Counted from the first letter of the stretch, positions 1 through 12,101 are shown. The stretch is 18,079 bases of DNA from Candidatus Cryosericum sp. (GCA_049699855.1 JBNAWM010000017.1:1-18079), one strand, 5' to 3'. Notes: generated from the letters alone by a model not told the origin. Program-made: numbers and translations.

Positions 1-2075
1 CCTATGGGACCAACAATGAGTTTGGATTTGACTACCTTCGTGATCATATGGCTCCATCGGAGCAGGATATGGTTCAGATGGGGGCGCTGGATTTTGGAAT
101 TGTCGATGAGGTTGACAACATCTTTATCGATGAAGCTCGAACGGCGCTCATCATTGCTGGGCCCGGCGGCGACTCGGACATGCCCTACTATGAGGCCGCT
201 GCTTTTGTTCGACGCCTGAAAGGGGTCATGCGGTCTGAGCTTGCTCAGGGCGAGAACGCAGTTCCCGAAGGGGCAGATTTCATCTTCGACGAGAAGCACA
301 AGACCATTGAACCCGCCGATGATCTGCTTACGCGCTTCGCGCGTTCGGCCAAGATTCCCCAGGAGAAACTTCTGAAGGATCAGGCGACGTATGACAAAAT
401 CTTGCGCAACGCCATTCGGGCTCAGGTGTTCTTCCACAAGGACAGCGAGTACATCATCAAGGATACGGAAGTCATCATAGTGGATGAATTCACCGGCCGT
501 CTGATGTATGGGCGCCGCTACTCCGAGGGACTGCACCAGGCCATCGAGGCAAAGGAAGGTCTCAAGGTCCGTGAAGAGAGCCAGACCCTGGCAACCATCA
601 CGATTCAGAACTTCTTCAAGATGTATCACAAGCTGTCTGGCATGACGGGAACGGCACTCACGGAAGCGGATGAATTCAAGGAGATCTATGGACTTGATGT
701 CCTTGAGATTCCCACGCATCGTCCAGTGCAGCGCCATGATGCCGATGATGAGGTTTACCGCTCGGAACGGGGCAAGCTGAACGCCATTCTGCGCGAGATC
801 CAGGAGCGGCATGAGAAAGGCCAGCCGGTGCTTGTCGGCACAAGGTCTGTCGAGAAATCCGAGGCACTCAGCCGCGAGCTGAAGAAGCTTGGGATCAAGC
901 ATCAGGTCCTGAACGCCAAGTACCATGAGAAAGAGGCGGAGATTATTGCCCAAGCAGGCCGCAGGGGGGCCGTGACCATCGCCACGAACATGGCGGGCCG
1001 CGGCGTCGACATTCTGCTTGGAGGCAACCCCGAGGCTCTTGCCCATGCGGGAGCTGTGGCACGCACCAAGGCCGACCCGAAGAAGCAGCCAGAGCAGTAT
1101 GCTCAGCAGTACAAGGAGGAGTATGACCGGCTGCTCGCCGAGTACAATGAGACATGGCCGAAGGAGCACGACGAAGTGGTACGATTGGGGGGTCTCTTCA
1201 TTCTGGGCACCGAGAGGCATGAATCGCGCCGCATCGACAATCAGCTGCGTGGACGCGCCGGTCGGCAGGGAGACCCCGGGGAGTCAAAGTTCTTCCTGTC
1301 GGCAGAAGACGACATCCTGCGGATCTTTGGCGGGGACAATATCAAGCACATCTTCGAAATGATGAAAGTGGAAGAAGACGTTCCTGTGAATCATCCGCTG
1401 TTGACGCGAACGATAGAAATGTCACAGAAGAAGGTCGAGTCCTACAACTTCGATGCCCGAAAGAGCCTTCTTGATTACGACAACGTCCTGAATAAACAGC
1501 GGGAGGTCATCTATGCTGAACGCGACAAGGTGCTGACCGGAGCCGACTTGACCGATGAGGTTCATGGCTTCATCAGCGAACAAGCTTCCATGACCGCTCA
1601 GCAGGTTGTCCAGGCGCAGCGCCTTGAAGAAGCCGATCTTGGCAAGATCTACAATGATCTCGTCGTCGAGGCCTTTGGCAGGCCATTGCCGATGTCACTC
1701 GAGGAGCTGAGCAGTCTTCTGGAGCAACGCGACGCCGAGGAGCAGCTTGCTTCAGCCATCCTTGAACGGGCCGAGTCGGTATACCGTGAAAAGTACGCCC
1801 GGTATGGAGATGATGTCATGCATCAGATCGAGCGCTACGTTTTCCTGCGCACGATCGACAGTGCATGGAGAGAACATCTGCTTCAGATGGATGATTTGAA
1901 AGATGGAATCGGACTGCGCGCCTACGGCCAGCAGGACCCGGTCATCGCCTATCAGAAGGAAGGCTATGATCTGTTTAATCAGCTGATGGATCAGATCAAG
2001 CAGGATGTAACGCGCATGCTGTTCATGTTTGAGTTGCAGCCTGCTCAACCGGAGAAGAAGCATGATCGATCTTGA
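1..2075 (+). CDS. secA: Preprotein translocase ATPase SecA, 5'-truncated by the window edge
   Basis: The frame is open from base 3 (YGTNNEFGFDYLRDHM). SecA motifs: IVDEVD..IDEART, IVDEFTGRLM.GRRYSEGLHQAIEAKE, GMTGTA, TIATNMAGRGVDI, ERHESRRIDNQLRGRAGRQGDPG. TGA stop at 2073-2075. Confidence 0.99.
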   Translation, partial: YGTNNEFGFDYLRDHMAPSEQDMVQMGALDFGIVDEVDNIFIDEARTALIIAGPGGDSDMPYYEAAAFVRRLKGVMRSELAQGENAVPEGADFIFDEKHKTIEPADDLLTRFARSAKIPQEKLLKDQATYDKILRNAIRAQVFFHKDSEYIIKDTEVIIVDEFTGRLMYGRRYSEGLHQAIEAKEGLKVREESQTLATITIQNFFKMYHKLSGMTGTALTEADEFKEIYGLDVLEIPTHRPVQRHDADDEVYRSERGKLNAILREIQERHEKGQPVLVGTRSVEKSEALSRELKKLGIKHQVLNAKYHEKEAEIIAQAGRRGAVTIATNMAGRGVDILLGGNPEALAHAGAVARTKADPKKQPEQYAQQYKEEYDRLLAEYNETWPKEHDEVVRLGGLFILGTERHESRRIDNQLRGRAGRQGDPGESKFFLSAEDDILRIFGGDNIKHIFEMMKVEEDVPVNHPLLTRTIEMSQKKVESYNFDARKSLLDYDNVLNKQREVIYAERDKVLTGADLTDEVHGFISEQASMTAQQVVQAQRLEEADLGKIYNDLVVEAFGRPLPMSLEELSSLLEQRDAEEQLASAILERAESVYREKYARYGDDVMHQIERYVFLRTIDSAWREHLLQMDDLKDGIGLRAYGQQDPVIAYQKEGYDLFNQLMDQIKQDVTRMLFMFELQPAQPEKKHDRS

Positions 2076-3189
2076 ACCACTGCGCAAGCGAATCTTGGAC
2101 TGTGATCGCCGCATTGCGGGACTCTATCAGCCTGGCTGACTGGCCAGCCGGCAGGCGCAGCTGGAAGAGCTGCGAAGCAAGACATTGGCTGCCGGCTTCT
2201 GGAACGATCAGGCTGCTGCTGCGGAGATCATGGGCACAATCGACCGTCTGGAGACAGACATTTCGTCCCAGAAGCGGGCCATGTCCGAACTCGATGACGC
2301 GCGGACCGCGGTTGATCTCCTGGAGGGGATGCCGGACGAGTCTCTGGAACGGGAAGCAACTGCCGGTCTTGATCGTCTTGAGCACGATCTTCAGCTCCTT
2401 GAGACGGCTGCCTACTTCAGCGGTCCATATGACGCGTCCAATGCCATCCTCTCACTTTCCAGCGGAGCAGGCGGAACGGACGCTCAGGACTGGACGGAAA
2501 TGCTCATGCGCATGTATACCCGTTATGCCGAACGACAGGGTTTCGAGGTCGTCGTGACAGATTACATGCCAGGCGAAGAGGCTGGCATCAAAGGCTGTAC
2601 CCTTGTCATCAAGGGGCAGTACGCGTATGGCCTGCTCAAACACGAAAAAGGCGTGCACCGGCTCGTTCGCATCAGTCCGTTTGATGCGAACAAGCGCCGC
2701 CATACGTCGTTTGCCGCCGCGGACATCATTCCTGAGATCCCGGAGACCAGCCTTACGATCGACATCCCGGAGGGAGACCTTCGCATCGACGTTTATCACG
2801 CCTCCGGTCATGGCGGTCAGAACGTTCAGAAAGTCTCTACGGCCGTGCGCATCACGCATATTCCAACTGGCATTTCGGCCAGTTGTCAGAACGAGCGTTC
2901 CCAGCTCCAGAACAAACGCATGGCTATGTCAGTACTCAAATCGAGGCTTCTTGTACAGCAGGAGCTGCAAAGGGACCAGGAGATCTCGCAGGTGCGCGGA
3001 GCCTTCAAGTCGGCCGAATGGGGCAACGAGATTCGGTCCTACGTCCTGCAGCCATACAAGCTGGCCAAGGATCACCGCACCGGTGTTGAAAAGGGTAATG
3101 TTGACGCAGTCCTGGATGGGGACTTGCAGGATTTCATCCTGGCAAGTGTGCGGCATGATGCGGAAAACCGTCGTTCGGGCGATTCGTGA
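2062..3189 (+). CDS. prfB: Peptide chain release factor 2, with an in-frame TGA at codon 26 (2137-2139); 375 aa if read through
   Basis: RF2-specific SPF motif (RISPFDAN), GGQ motif (ASGHGGQNVQK), GAGGTDAQDW and WGNEIRSYVLQPY. ATG 2062 has GGAG (2051-2054) 7 nt upstream and overlaps the secA 3' end. Codons 1-25 (MIDLEPLRKRILDCDRRIAGLYQPG) are in the same frame as the ORF-track entry 2185..3189. Confidence 0.96.
2122..2164 (+). other. Candidate recoding site: in-frame UGA-C within prfB, with local GC-rich hairpins
   Basis: CTC TAT CAG CCT GGC TGA CTG GCC AGC CGG CAG GCG CAG CTG. TGA at 2137-2139 is followed by C, and the downstream RF2 sequence is in the same frame. Confidence 0.7.
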
Positions 3190-4018
3190 CGTCGTTGGCA
3201 TAACGGTGGGGTGCATCATCTATGCCCTGTCGTTTGCCCTCTTCGTCGTCCCGATGAATCTTGCTCCCGGCGGAGTCTCCGGTCTTGCCATTATCATAAA
3301 CCACTTCTTTGGCATCGTTCCGATAGGACTGACCATCATCATTCTGAACGCACCGCTGTTCTTGATGAGTCTGAAGCGGCTCGGCAAAGGATTCCTGTGG
3401 CGCTCTGTCTATGCGACAGTGGCTTCATCCCTGATGATCGATGCCATTCTGCCATTTATGCGCAATTTCCATGTCGACATCGTCCTTTCCTCAATCTACG
3501 CGGGTGTGCTCATGGGAATCGGCATCGGCATTATCTTTCGATTCTTTGGCTCGACGGGCGGCACCGATCTTTTGGCACAGCTCCTGTCCGAGCACATCGG
3601 CCTGAGCTTTGGTACGACCCTCTTACTGATCGATACGGTGATCATCGGACTGTCGGGCATCGCGTTTCACAGTGTCACGATCCCGCTCTATTCCATCGTG
3701 TCGCTGTATATTTCGGCCAAGGCAATTGACCTGGTTCAGGAGGGCGTCTCGTTTTCCAAGGCTGCGTGGATTATCAGCAACCAGCCGGATGTCATTGTCG
3801 ACAAGATTATGACCGAGCTGGACCGGGGAGCCACCAAAGTCATGGCAACCGGCGGCTACTCCAAAGAGCCGAGGGAAGTCGTGTTCTGCGTTGTGCCCCA
3901 GAGCCAGATCTCCCATCTCAAGCAAATCGTTCATGAAGCTGATCCAAACGCATTCGTCGTAATCGTTGAAGTCACCGAGGCTCTGGGTCTCGGGTTTAAG
4001 GAGCTGGGAACACGCTGA
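3155..4018 (+). CDS. YitT/YvjA-family membrane protein (DUF161 + DUF2179), about 287 aa
   Basis: Hydrophobic helices with the family motifs NLAPGGVSGLAII and GSTGGTDLLA, and a C-terminal RGAT...GGYS...DPNAFV domain. Start ATG 3155 or 3158 overlaps the prfB 3' end. Same position as yvjA in the B. subtilis secA-prfB-yvjA...ftsEX cluster. The ORF-track start at 2603 is probably a spurious extension. Confidence 0.92.
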   Translation: MMRKTVVRAIRDVVGITVGCIIYALSFALFVVPMNLAPGGVSGLAIIINHFFGIVPIGLTIIILNAPLFLMSLKRLGKGFLWRSVYATVASSLMIDAILPFMRNFHVDIVLSSIYAGVLMGIGIGIIFRFFGSTGGTDLLAQLLSEHIGLSFGTTLLLIDTVIIGLSGIAFHSVTIPLYSIVSLYISAKAIDLVQEGVSFSKAAWIISNQPDVIVDKIMTELDRGATKVMATGGYSKEPREVVFCVVPQSQISHLKQIVHEADPNAFVVIVEVTEALGLGFKELGTR

Positions 4019-8541: not shown

Positions 8542-8793
8542 ATGGAAGAGCAGAAAGAAGTGACCGCCCGACAGCCTGAGCTCGCCAACCTCTACTTGGA
8601 GACGTTGACCGCGAAGGTGAATCCAAACAAGTACGAACTTATCCGCGAACTCCTCAATGTGGCCCACGAGATGCTGGAGGAAAAGGCAGACCCGCTTCGG
8701 GAATCGGTCGATGACACCCTTCGGAAGGCAGCAGGACGCATGGTACTGGCTGCAGAGCGAAACGAAACAGAGGCGACTGAGACAAACCCGTAG
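8542..8793 (+). CDS. Small protein, probably a highly divergent RNA polymerase omega subunit
   Basis: AGGAG RBS at 8531-8535. 83 aa, in the conserved gmk-rpoZ slot. LETLTAKVNPNKYELI...AHEM resembles the omega N-terminal pattern (l..ll.kv.nkY.Lv.....RA.ql), but the RAR motif is absent. Confidence 0.6.
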   Translation: MEEQKEVTARQPELANLYLETLTAKVNPNKYELIRELLNVAHEMLEEKADPLRESVDDTLRKAAGRMVLAAERNETEATETNP

Positions 8794-10022: not shown

Positions 10023-12101
10023 GTGATTGGCAGTTTCATTGTCCTGACACAGCGGGGTCCTTTTTCGCGTACCCTGCTGTCGTACGACCTGAGTTCGGTT
10101 GCTGATCAGCCTCAGGTTGGCAGCTGGTTTCTTGTGCCTTTCGCCCATGAACCTGCGCCAGGACTGCTGGTGGAATTGCCTCAGTCCGATCTAGTGAGCG
10201 CCGCTTCGGCGACCGTGCTTCCGGCCTTGTCGTTATTTAATGCACCTGGCATCTATCCCAACCTTGGTGCAAGCGTCACCGCTCTCTGGAGATCGCTGGA
10301 GCGCCAGCTGCTTGGCTGGGATGATGCTCTTGCAGCAGTGCGATTTCTGCAGACATCCCAGGCCCGCAACCACCAACGGGCACGTTTTGTCACCTCCGAC
10401 CTGACAAGACTTCTGGACCAGCTCCAACTGGTTGCCGGGCAGGATCCCTCATTTGCACGCCACAGTGATGCAGCGCGCACGGTCCTCCTCGAGTATGCGT
10501 CAGGACTTCCACTGCAAAAGGCGCTCCTCAAGATATCAACAGCTGAACGCCGCCTGATGTTTGACCAGGGACTGCTGGTCGATGCCGAGACTGCCGACAG
10601 CCTGCTGGTCCCGCGCCATCTCCCGCTGCCATCAGCAGGGAACGATGAACTCATCGTTGGAGCCTTTGGCGAGCGTGCCAAACAGTTTGCCGCTGCCATG
10701 GCTCAGACCACTTCGGCAGGTGGAAGCGCCGCCCTCATCGTGAGTTCAGATGTTCTGGCCGACCAGTACCAGCAGCTCCTTCAGGAGCAATACCATCTTC
10801 CTGTCATCCGATGGCCCTCCGTCTCGGGCAAGCACCTGCCCGCTCAGCGCCCACCCTCGGTCTGGCTGAGTACGCGACAGTTTTCGTCCGTCATCCTTCC
10901 CGAGGTCTCGCTGACCGCAATCGATCTTGGAATCCCGGGAGAGTGGCCTTTTTTCTGGGAACGATTCTCAATGCGAAGTCTTGTTGCCATTGTGCGCGAC
11001 TTCAGCAGAGCTCAAGGCATGCCATGTATGATCGGCACCACTGTTCCAACGCTCTCTGTGCTCGATGTCTGCGGTCTGACAGCCGACTCCGACGAAGCAG
11101 GCGGTCACAACGAGGGCAGAGCGAAGTTTGTCGTACGCACCCAGAGCGCCACGCAGCAAGCGCCCGTGACATCTGGAATACTCCTGAAGCCAACCTTGAC
11201 CGCACTTCGTGCTACCTACGAGCTGGGTCGCACTGCCCTGCTGCTCCTGAACATTCGCGGTCTGGCAACCGTCATCGAGTGCGCCGAATGCGGCTACACA
11301 GCGACTTGTCCGATCTGTGGAACGACGCTCACGCTCAGTGGCGACCGAACACGACTCTATTGCAAGCAGTGCGGCTATTCGGAGAGTCCCCCTGATGTCT
11401 GCCCGAACTGCCATGGAACGCAGCTGCGATCGCGCGGATATGGTCTGGATCGGCTCGCCCGCGAACTCCAGCGCACGTTCCCCGTCAACTCGATCGAGAT
11501 TCTCAGAACTGAGGATGAAAAGGCTCCCGTGACCGTCGGAACTGCTCGCTTGTACCTGGGAACATATGCAGATGTCCAGCGGATTTCCACCTTGAGCCCC
11601 GACTTGGTTGTTTTTCCCGATGTGAGCGTCGGCCTGCGACATCCGGTGTTCGATAACGTCGAACAGCTGGCCGCTGTCGTCCGCGGCGCGGTGCGGGAGG
11701 CTGGCCACGGCGGTGTTGTTGTTCAGCTTGATCGTCGGTCGCTCGGGTTGCAGGAGGCCCTTGATGGGCAGTACCCGTTCTCCTCATTCCTCAAGAAGGA
11801 GGCCCTTGAGAGGCAGGGGCTGCTTATGCCACCATTCGCCCGGCAGTTCAGCATTCGTGTTCCATGGCGCGGCGATGCACAGGGTGCCGAAGAGATCGCG
11901 TCACTTTTGCGGGAGGCCCTGCGCACTGAAGACGTTACAGCGCTGGGACTGCATGCTGACGTGCTGAGCGTATCTCCCCGGTCAAAGATTCTGTCTCTCG
12001 AATTTCGAGCAGATATAGCTGAGCCAGCACTTGAATTGCGCGTGAACGCTTCTCTTCGTCACACTAAGCTCTTCCAGAACGCTCTCATTCGCATATACTG
12101 A
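10023..12101 (+). CDS. priA: Primosomal protein N' (PriA) with degenerate helicase motifs
   Basis: PriA cysteine-rich region CxxC-x5-CxxC-x14-CxxC-x9-CxxC (11280-11411), preceded by LLLLNIRG and followed by GYG.DR...EL...FP. C-terminal ER....MPPF. Lies in the conserved metK-priA-def-fmt order. Confidence 0.88.
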   Translation: MIGSFIVLTQRGPFSRTLLSYDLSSVADQPQVGSWFLVPFAHEPAPGLLVELPQSDLVSAASATVLPALSLFNAPGIYPNLGASVTALWRSLERQLLGWDDALAAVRFLQTSQARNHQRARFVTSDLTRLLDQLQLVAGQDPSFARHSDAARTVLLEYASGLPLQKALLKISTAERRLMFDQGLLVDAETADSLLVPRHLPLPSAGNDELIVGAFGERAKQFAAAMAQTTSAGGSAALIVSSDVLADQYQQLLQEQYHLPVIRWPSVSGKHLPAQRPPSVWLSTRQFSSVILPEVSLTAIDLGIPGEWPFFWERFSMRSLVAIVRDFSRAQGMPCMIGTTVPTLSVLDVCGLTADSDEAGGHNEGRAKFVVRTQSATQQAPVTSGILLKPTLTALRATYELGRTALLLLNIRGLATVIECAECGYTATCPICGTTLTLSGDRTRLYCKQCGYSESPPDVCPNCHGTQLRSRGYGLDRLARELQRTFPVNSIEILRTEDEKAPVTVGTARLYLGTYADVQRISTLSPDLVVFPDVSVGLRHPVFDNVEQLAAVVRGAVREAGHGGVVVQLDRRSLGLQEALDGQYPFSSFLKKEALERQGLLMPPFARQFSIRVPWRGDAQGAEEIASLLREALRTEDVTALGLHADVLSVSPRSKILSLEFRADIAEPALELRVNASLRHTKLFQNALIRIY

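Follow-up and report, generated by a model that had tools for sequence, protein, structure and literature searches.

An in-frame UGA at codon 26 of prfB in two orders of Caldisericota, and its probable role in autoregulation of release factor 2 by readthrough

The gene for release factor 2 (RF2), prfB, was examined in an 18,079-nt stretch of DNA from Candidatus Cryosericum sp. (GCA_049699855.1 JBNAWM010000017.1:1-18079; hereafter the window, meaning the whole stretch), which belongs to a metagenome-assembled genome (MAG) of 1.63 Mb in 157 contigs, 97.9% complete. Autoregulatory recoding has its textbook example in the frameshift of RF2 genes. In this gene, codon 26 is a UGA and the body of RF2 follows in the same frame, not in the +1 frame. 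From comparative evidence we consider it quite likely that prfB is expressed here by programmed in-frame readthrough of UGA 26, making RF2 synthesis self-limiting. We also lean towards a wider reading, in which this is a never-observed readthrough design of RF2 autoregulation that arose from a frameshift site by a one-base deletion and has long been kept in two Caldisericota orders, with lineage-specific stimulators: a stem-loop in Cryosericum and a Gly-Leu-Asp-Tyr-Ser nascent end in Caldisericaceae.

Frame 1 from the ATG at 2062 reads MIDLEPLRKRILDCDRRIAGLYQPG*LASRQAQLEELRSKTLAAGFWND and contains no further stop until the TGA at 3187-3189; counting codon 26, the full-length product has 375 residues. 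A first-pass annotation, made from the sequence alone, had described this ATG with a GGAG 7 nt upstream, the TGA at 2137-2139 and the continuation in frame 0 into the RF2 body. All of these were re-derived from the sequence, and the observation is confirmed. GGAG or AGAG stands at the same spacing before the start in the alignment of the genus. Codons 22-25 are TAT CAG CCT GGC, with neither a CTT nor an internal Shine-Dalgarno (SD) sequence, as the annotation had stated, and the codons upstream of the -1 position (CTC TAT CAG CCT) are without an internal SD-like stimulator. After the UGA, the +1 frame gives DWPAGRRSW..., which is unrelated to RF2 and, as had been noted, runs to a stop ending at 2557 (2555-2557).

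The product is a genuine RF2. It scores 450.2 bits against TIGR00020 (NCBIfam prfB; cut-off 370), and models for release factor 1 (RF1) give it 235-239 bits, under their own cut-offs. It contains the PCRF (PF03462, 2.8e-51) and RF-1 (PF00472, 1.5e-35) domains, the stop-recognition tripeptide SPF at residue 205 (2674-2682) and the peptidyl-hydrolysis motif GGQ at residue 251 (2812-2820). In a gap-free alignment to E. coli K-12 RF2 (NC_000913.3), the first open reading frame (ORF1, codons 1-25) matches residues 1-25 and the UGA falls exactly at D26. The identities that the annotation had listed (P6, R10, I11, D13, R17, L21, L34, E35, E36, W47 and N48) all hold, and M1 and A53 can be added to them.

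It is also the only RF2 gene found: the 97.9%-complete source genome yielded no second one, its other matches being two RF1 pieces at contig ends. The RF1 gene (prfA) of this same genome (G000) is split between C102:5-379 and C4:12-416 (L002, L003), which is an assembly break and not a broken gene. The other Cryosericum genomes with TGA at codon 26 have one RF2 gene each, their second match being an RF1 of 36-40% identity, except for G005. This MAG (~3% contamination) holds two prfB copies on separate contigs, C174 (L054) and C187 (L007), one with TGA and one with TGG at codon 26. L007 is near-identical to L024 from another genome. The two copies probably represent two co-binned populations rather than a duplication.

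To place codon 26 among relatives, we aligned prfB 5' ends across the phylum Caldisericota. Among 24 sequences from 23 species genomes of Candidatus Cryosericum, an order with a single genus, the codon is TGA in 11 and TGG in 13, with no insertion or deletion. The homologous codon in Caldisericaceae (~36% GC), where 24 of 26 genomes gave a prfB match, is TGA in 14 of 24 sequences and TGG in 10. In total, 25 of the 48 prfB sequences, from two orders, carry an in-frame TGA, all of the other 23 carry TGG (Trp), and in every one of the 25 TGA-type sequences frame 0, and not the +1 frame, encodes the RF2 body. Judged from these alignments, an in-frame TGA at the same codon in 25 of 48 sequences is far beyond chance. 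The extra base that might have restored a +1 shift was seen in none of the 24 Cryosericum and 24 Caldisericaceae sequences, all of which are colinear at the site. Contigs from three other studies (X2, X6 and X7) also span 2056-2226 without an insertion or deletion, although they come from relatives 94-96% identical to the source and do not establish the base at 2139; contigs of run X1 give no cover over 1999-2397. A metagenome scan added six Cryosericum-like sites, five with TGG and one with TGA (L192), too few for a covariation test. Outside Caldisericota, no in-frame TGA was found among the best 80 matching genome-contig loci, which do not amount to a systematic survey of Bacteria.

Related families differ at this position. 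In three families of the same class (f4, f5 and f6), six of six sequences have the classical arrangement, AGGAG or AGGGGG followed by TTT-CTT-TGA with the body in the +1 frame; the base after the UGA is C in five of these and A in one. The remaining genomes of f4-f6 match RF2 only from residue 31-37 onward, as expected from the frame change. Family f2 (two sequences) has a plain open frame with neither a stop nor Trp at the position, and family f7, of another class (seven sequences), a plain open frame in which the residue is Asp, Asn, His or Pro. Among the families examined, Trp at the codon-26 position is confined to the two in which TGA and TGG alternate.

In a tree of RF2 proteins (53 rows, after three short sequences had been dropped) these two families cluster, with a support of 88 by the Shimodaira-Hasegawa-like approximate likelihood ratio test (SH-aLRT). 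The basal Cryosericum lineages all have TGA, with the TGG sequences nested among them, and Caldisericaceae divide into a TGA clade (n = 14, SH-aLRT 99) and a TGG clade (n = 10). At least three changes at codon 26 are required over this tree. The secA fragment next to prfB, in a tree of 23 rows, likewise places TGA lineages at the base of Cryosericum with the TGG lineages nested. The Caldisericaceae TGA clade has kept its stop across saturated synonymous divergence (proportion of synonymous differences, pS, 0.72). On these trees, the TGA state is ancestral and long kept; being conserved in 25 sequences and ancestral by both genes, the TGA is not the private nonsense mutation that the annotation had named as a possible objection.

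The codons next to the UGA are more constrained where the UGA is present. The -1 codon is GGC in all 11 TGA-type Cryosericum sequences; among the 13 of the TGG type, it is GGC in seven, GGT in one and GAC in five. CUG stands at +1 throughout the TGA type (11 of 11), while the TGG type has CUG in 11, UUG in one and CUC in one. Across both families, CUR (CUG or CUA) follows the UGA in 25 of 25 TGA-type sequences. In TGA-type Caldisericaceae, the -1 codon is UCC, UCU or UUC (14/14), which gives a UCY-UGA-CUR context with one UUC, and ORF1 ends in Gly-Leu-Asp-Tyr-Ser in 12 of 14, with one Ile for Leu and one Phe for Ser; the ORF1-end region of TGG-type Caldisericaceae is variable.

Synonymous divergence, measured in 12-codon windows, points in the same direction. 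In nine crown TGA-type Cryosericum species, pS is 0.12 in codons 25-36, 0.13 in codons 31-42 and 0.16 in codons 37-48, when the gene-wide value is 0.67. No other window of prfB is as low in these species; the three values amount to 0.18-0.24 of the gene average, or a roughly five-fold drop. Across ten TGG-type species, pS over these codons is 0.45, 0.42 and 0.29, with a gene value of 0.405, and there is no comparable dip. We regard this dip as the strongest signal for a selected recoding signal: because the conserved context and the synonymous dip are both specific to the TGA type, a recoding signal appears to be under selection. In Caldisericaceae the synonymous-site test is powerless, as pS is saturated at ~0.72.

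Shortly after the UGA in Cryosericum, the stretch under synonymous constraint (2146-2197) folds into a candidate stem-loop, in which an outer stem of 9-10 bp (AGCCGGCAG / CUGCCGGCU) surrounds a 6-bp hairpin, GCAGCU-GGAAG-AGCUGC (2157-2173). Folding of 2128-2220 gives a minimum free energy of -44.6 kcal/mol (z -2.09), and per-sequence z-scores are modest, with group means of -0.4 to -1.35. In the nine crown species of the TGA type, each of the 16 stem pairs is standard (144/144 cells), whereas 83.9% of stem cells pair in TGG-type sequences, even though these species are less diverged overall. By this comparison, those nine crown species keep the stem-loop intact, and it is decaying in the TGG type. 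Rfam over 1800-2500 returned a single chance match (SCARNA18, E 0.53). No shared downstream structure was detected in Caldisericaceae (alifold -1.04 kcal/mol). In seven Caldisericaceae sequences (L030, L072, L073, L075, L076, L068 and L070), a stretch rich in purines, AAGGAAGAGGAAG or AGGAAGCGGAAG, lies ~10 nt downstream of the TGA and pairs with a second stretch resembling UUCCCUUCCU some 30 nt beyond it (z -0.3 to -2.6); this pairing may be the equivalent, in that lineage, of the Cryosericum stem-loop.

Constraint at the protein level is found on both sides of the UGA. For codons 6-25 of TGA-type species, the proportion of nonsynonymous differences (pN) is 0.237 and pS 0.603, with a ratio of nonsynonymous to synonymous rates (dN/dS) of 0.23. 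Relative to the RF2 body, which is under purifying selection (pN 0.03-0.11), pN in codons 6-25 and 27-44 is 2.1 and 1.8 in the TGA type, and 3.0 and 4.2 in the TGG type. As the constraint is as strong as in TGG-type sequences, where both segments are certainly part of RF2, the view that both segments flanking the UGA are translated as protein is supported.

UGA is still a stop codon in this genome. ORFs called greedily with NCBI genetic code table 11 cover 89.3% of it, and 837 of the 1556 (54%) end in TGA. Within the window TGA also predominates, as the annotation had claimed, but it ends 12 of 17 genes rather than 13 of 18. Aragorn found 44 tRNAs, among them one tRNA-Trp (CCA), and no tRNA for selenocysteine (Sec) or with a UCA anticodon; SelA was not found in the 97.9%-complete genome, and SelB was not searched for. 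To look for other in-frame TGA codons, we searched the whole genome against 400 kb from G019, a TGG-type relative, with alignments free to run through TGA and a coding-frame filter applied. An earlier version of this screen had been flooded by shadow-frame ORFs of the GC-rich genome, and was dropped in favour of greedy genes with a codon-position filter. In 216 alignments, comprising 74,899 codons and 642 Trp-on-TGG columns, the one in-frame TGA that has conserved flanks and lies in a frame free of any overlapping longer ORF is that of prfB. Eight other well-aligned TGA places all lie under a longer open frame elsewhere (227-1119 codons), and the remaining matches are poorly aligned N-terminal extensions, of which C85:2125 and C19:6181 (local identity ~0.6, alignment positions 3 and 30) are weak and were not checked individually. 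In G032 (160 kb), a Caldisericaceae genome of the TGA type, 50 of the 157 ORFs terminate in TGA, and prfB has the sole true-frame TGA in 48 ortholog alignments. These screens, rough and partial as they are, clearly argue against a change of code, and the annotation's view that UGA is not reassigned stands.

We propose the following mechanism. Ribosomes would start at AUG 2062, translate 25 codons and pause as UGA enters the A site, with GGC in the P site; there RF2, the sole factor that reads UGA, would compete with near-cognate Trp-tRNA (CCA). With RF2 plentiful, a 25-residue peptide would be released; with RF2 scarce, Trp would be inserted and the frame kept, giving full-length RF2 of 375 residues. 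The weak stop context (UGA-CUG after Pro-Gly) would tilt this balance, and in crown Cryosericum species the stem-loop 6 nt downstream probably adds to the tilt. Several steps are our inferences from the alignments: that readthrough occurs at UGA 26, that its output responds to the level of RF2 and that the stem-loop acts as a stimulator. Trp is the presumed inserted residue because TGG is the only alternative codon at the position, TGA and TGG alternating exclusively; it is also the residue that E. coli is reported to insert at UGA (PMC7918605). None of the objections that the annotation had named refuted it in the checks made, and the autoregulation by readthrough that it had suggested is supported by the comparative evidence.

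The arrangement most likely originated from a classical CUU-UGA-C +1 frameshift site, in which the UGA was kept while the body came into frame 0 through the net loss of one base directly downstream. Later changes of UGA to UGG in at least three lineages would have fixed Trp, with loss of control. The presence of Trp rather than the usual Asp would then be explained by derivation of UGG from a retained regulatory UGA.

Other explanations of the same sequences need to be weighed. One is that the UGA is a tolerated leaky nonsense codon without a selected role, with TGA and TGG drifting as near-neutral alleles. The two codons do alternate between close relatives (both alleles are binned in G005), TGG lineages are viable, and the secA tree places one TGA sequence (L008), with weak support, between TGG rows, which would permit a reversal from TGG to TGA; in addition, a change from UGG to UGA in prfB of a Providencia symbiont is described in the available part of the report as tolerated or degenerative (PMC10540940). 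Under drift, however, the flanks of TGA and TGG should look alike; fixation of the -1 and +1 codons and the drop in pS over codons 25-48 are instead confined to the TGA type. Moreover, 14 Caldisericaceae have retained the stop although their synonymous divergence is saturated, the stop lies exactly where sister families carry an autoregulatory UGA, and RF2 would feed back on any UGA within prfB, whatever its history. We therefore regard simple tolerance as unlikely. We think it improbable that ORF1 is a mere upstream ORF of 25 codons with RF2 starting downstream, at ATG 2230 (M57) or TTG 2185, perhaps by coupling to termination. M57 is conserved in all Cryosericum sequences with a GGAG just upstream, and a table-11 ORF listing opens the frame at TTG 2185; but that GGAG is only 3 nt from the ATG, and codon 42, the TTG, is T, M, V or L in relatives and so is not conserved as a start. 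Codons 6-25 and 27-44 are constrained at the protein level as strongly as in the TGG type, the CUA found as +1 codon in 5 of 14 Caldisericaceae makes reinitiation at the adjacent codon impossible, and a termination-coupled restart would yield positive, not negative, feedback.

Dedicated decoding or an altered code, by insertion of Sec, a suppressor tRNA or a Mycoplasma-like reading of UGA as Trp, appears very improbable. The stem-loop shortly after the UGA superficially resembles a Sec insertion sequence, and a tRNA gene may be unassembled in a MAG of 157 contigs. Nevertheless, the tRNA and SelA searches described above were negative, and the homologues have Trp at codon 26 and never Cys (TGC or TGT), unlike what is expected of a selenoprotein. 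Nor does the genome resemble one using NCBI table 4, as TGA is the commonest stop, RF2 is conserved under purifying selection, tRNA-Trp has only the CCA anticodon, and no other supported in-frame TGA was seen in the 216 and 48 ortholog alignments. We give almost no credence to an artefact, be it an error of base calling or assembly or a lost base masking a +1 frameshift site. Although the window comes from a fragmented MAG and the site was checked with contigs rather than raw reads, 25 independent assemblies of different species share the in-frame TGA with colinear flanks, as does the metagenome contig L192; the contigs from other studies cross the site without insertion or deletion, and the CTT and SD elements of a frameshift site are absent.

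Several observations weigh against programmed readthrough as proposed here. Control by the UGA is dispensable, given that at least three lineages have swapped TGA for TGG. The stem-loop has no compensatory pair changes, so that constraint on structure and on primary sequence are inseparable, and its fold is absent from the deepest TGA-type lineages (L022 and L023) and from all Caldisericaceae; it therefore cannot be a universal requirement. A suppressor-like tRNA-Trp was not seen: the known UGA-suppressor change in tRNA-Trp is at G24, and the D-stem here has an ordinary U11-G24 pair. The conservation of M57 leaves the sequence compatible with a shorter RF2 from that codon. Lastly, UGA readthrough by tRNA-Trp is usually a few percent, with 6% quoted for B. 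subtilis in the accessible text of one source (PMC7918605), so supplying all RF2 in this way would need unusually high efficiency or strong initiation.

The proposed design shares with the classical prfB +1 frameshift (E. coli codon 26) the gene, the position of the UGA (D26), the C that follows it and the logic of negative feedback by RF2. It differs in that ORF2 is in frame 0 rather than +1, CUU is replaced by GGC (or UCY) and there is no internal SD. The classical product has Asp at the position, whereas the Cryosericum event requires a residue to be inserted by readthrough (Trp in relatives). The closest described case is prfB of Candidatus Providencia siddallii PSAC, for which the report, in the part available, likewise gives an in-frame UGA at a Trp position, a retained tRNA-Trp (CCA) and a proposal of low-level readthrough (PMC10540940). 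There, however, 125 of 610 genes have in-frame UGA in a reduced genome of 22% GC, and the prfB change is read as a pseudogene-like first step of a switch from code 11 to code 4 (PMC10540940). Cryosericum is unlike this: UGA is the main stop, no other supported in-frame UGA was found, the stop, with a conserved context of its own, is shared by two orders, and the position is the ancestral regulatory one. Plant eRF1 is likewise a release factor controlled through readthrough of a stop that it recognizes, as far as the accessible text describes it (PMC5397192); that system is eukaryotic, uses the normal terminator and acts on mRNA stability through the 3' untranslated region and nonsense-mediated decay (PMC5397192), whereas in Cryosericum an early internal stop would gate the body of the protein. 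Viral readthrough, as at the gag-pol UAG and pseudoknot of murine leukemia virus, outlined in the available part of a review (PMC5009743), shares a leaky in-frame stop, a 3' context, and a spacer with a candidate structure. It differs in giving a fixed ratio of two products; here we have a bacterial cellular gene, a UGA and a simple bipartite candidate stem-loop, and the purpose would be to sense the release factor.

According to the portion of that 2016 review available, a readthrough version of RF2 control was considered before RF2 genes were sequenced, and readthrough had been found in no RF2 gene, nor replacing frameshifting in any known organism (PMC5009743). A 2025 survey of annotated prfB in 12,751 RefSeq genomes contains neither "readthrough" nor "Caldiseric" in the accessible paper or preprint text (PMC12421855). 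The annotation knew of no described case; our literature search likewise found no RF2 gene with a same-frame UGA, apart from that of the Providencia symbiont, in a search that left most subscription journals outside and is no proof of absence.

The coordinates of the locus are collected in Table 1. All 24 Cryosericum loci share the 14-nt overlap of secA and prfB at 2062-2075 (ATGATCGATCTTGA), with the secA end ...HDRS/T-TGA, and because of this conservation the two genes are probably translationally coupled. The terminator of prfB is TGA in 17 of the 19 complete Cryosericum sequences, five others being cut by contig ends, and is TAA in L020 and TAG in L023; RF2 would therefore both gate and end its own synthesis in most of the genus. 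In Caldisericaceae, the terminator is TAA or TAG.

Table 1. Coordinates of features at and around prfB in the window
Feature	Position	Strand	Remarks
secA, 3' part	3..2075	+	SecA domains; TGA stop 2073-2075 within prfB codons 4-5
prfB start ATG	2062	+	SD-like GGAG 2051..2054, 7 nt 5' of start (AACCGGAGAAGAAGCATGA)
prfB ORF1, codons 1-25 (MIDLEPLRKRILDCDRRIAGLYQPG)	2062..2136	+	first 14 nt overlap secA end
Stop context GGC-UGA-CUG (-1 codon, stop, +1 codon)	2134..2142	+	
In-frame UGA, codon 26; proposed sensor codon (RF2 termination or Trp-tRNA readthrough)	2137..2139	+	
prfB ORF2, frame 0, RF2 residues 27-375	2140..3189	+	includes own TGA terminator 3187-3189
Candidate readthrough-stimulating stem-loop	2146..2197	+	6-nt spacer after UGA
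YitT-family membrane protein gene (PF02588 + DUF2179)	3155-4018	+	ATG 35 nt before prfB stop, other frame

The rest of the window holds housekeeping genes (ftsE, ftsX, M23 and S41 peptidases, gmk, metK, def and fmt), and its minus strand encodes a XerC-like recombinase, an FeS-assembly protein, aroA and a UDP-GlcNAc 2-epimerase. Two plus-strand ORFs, one of 692 residues (10023-12101) between metK and def and one of 83 residues (8542-8793) after gmk, had no Pfam match with E <= 1e-5; as a guess from gene order, the first might be priA-like and the second rpoZ-like.

If the proposed readthrough is real, the same feedback can be built from two recoding events, one of which is able to evolve into the other, and the Trp codon in sister lineages would be a fossil of the residue inserted by readthrough. 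The TGG lineages would serve as natural "knock-outs" from which the worth of autoregulation could be judged. The locus would also offer studies of mechanism, and RF2-sensing genetic circuits, a naturally occurring bacterial cassette for readthrough that includes a candidate stimulator, and it would follow that pipelines and surveys based on annotated prfB can miss or truncate such genes. Finally, Caldisericota would present as a stable state an essential gene that needs UGA to be read as Trp while UGA remains the main stop, the intermediate that has been invoked for the origin of the code in which UGA means Trp.

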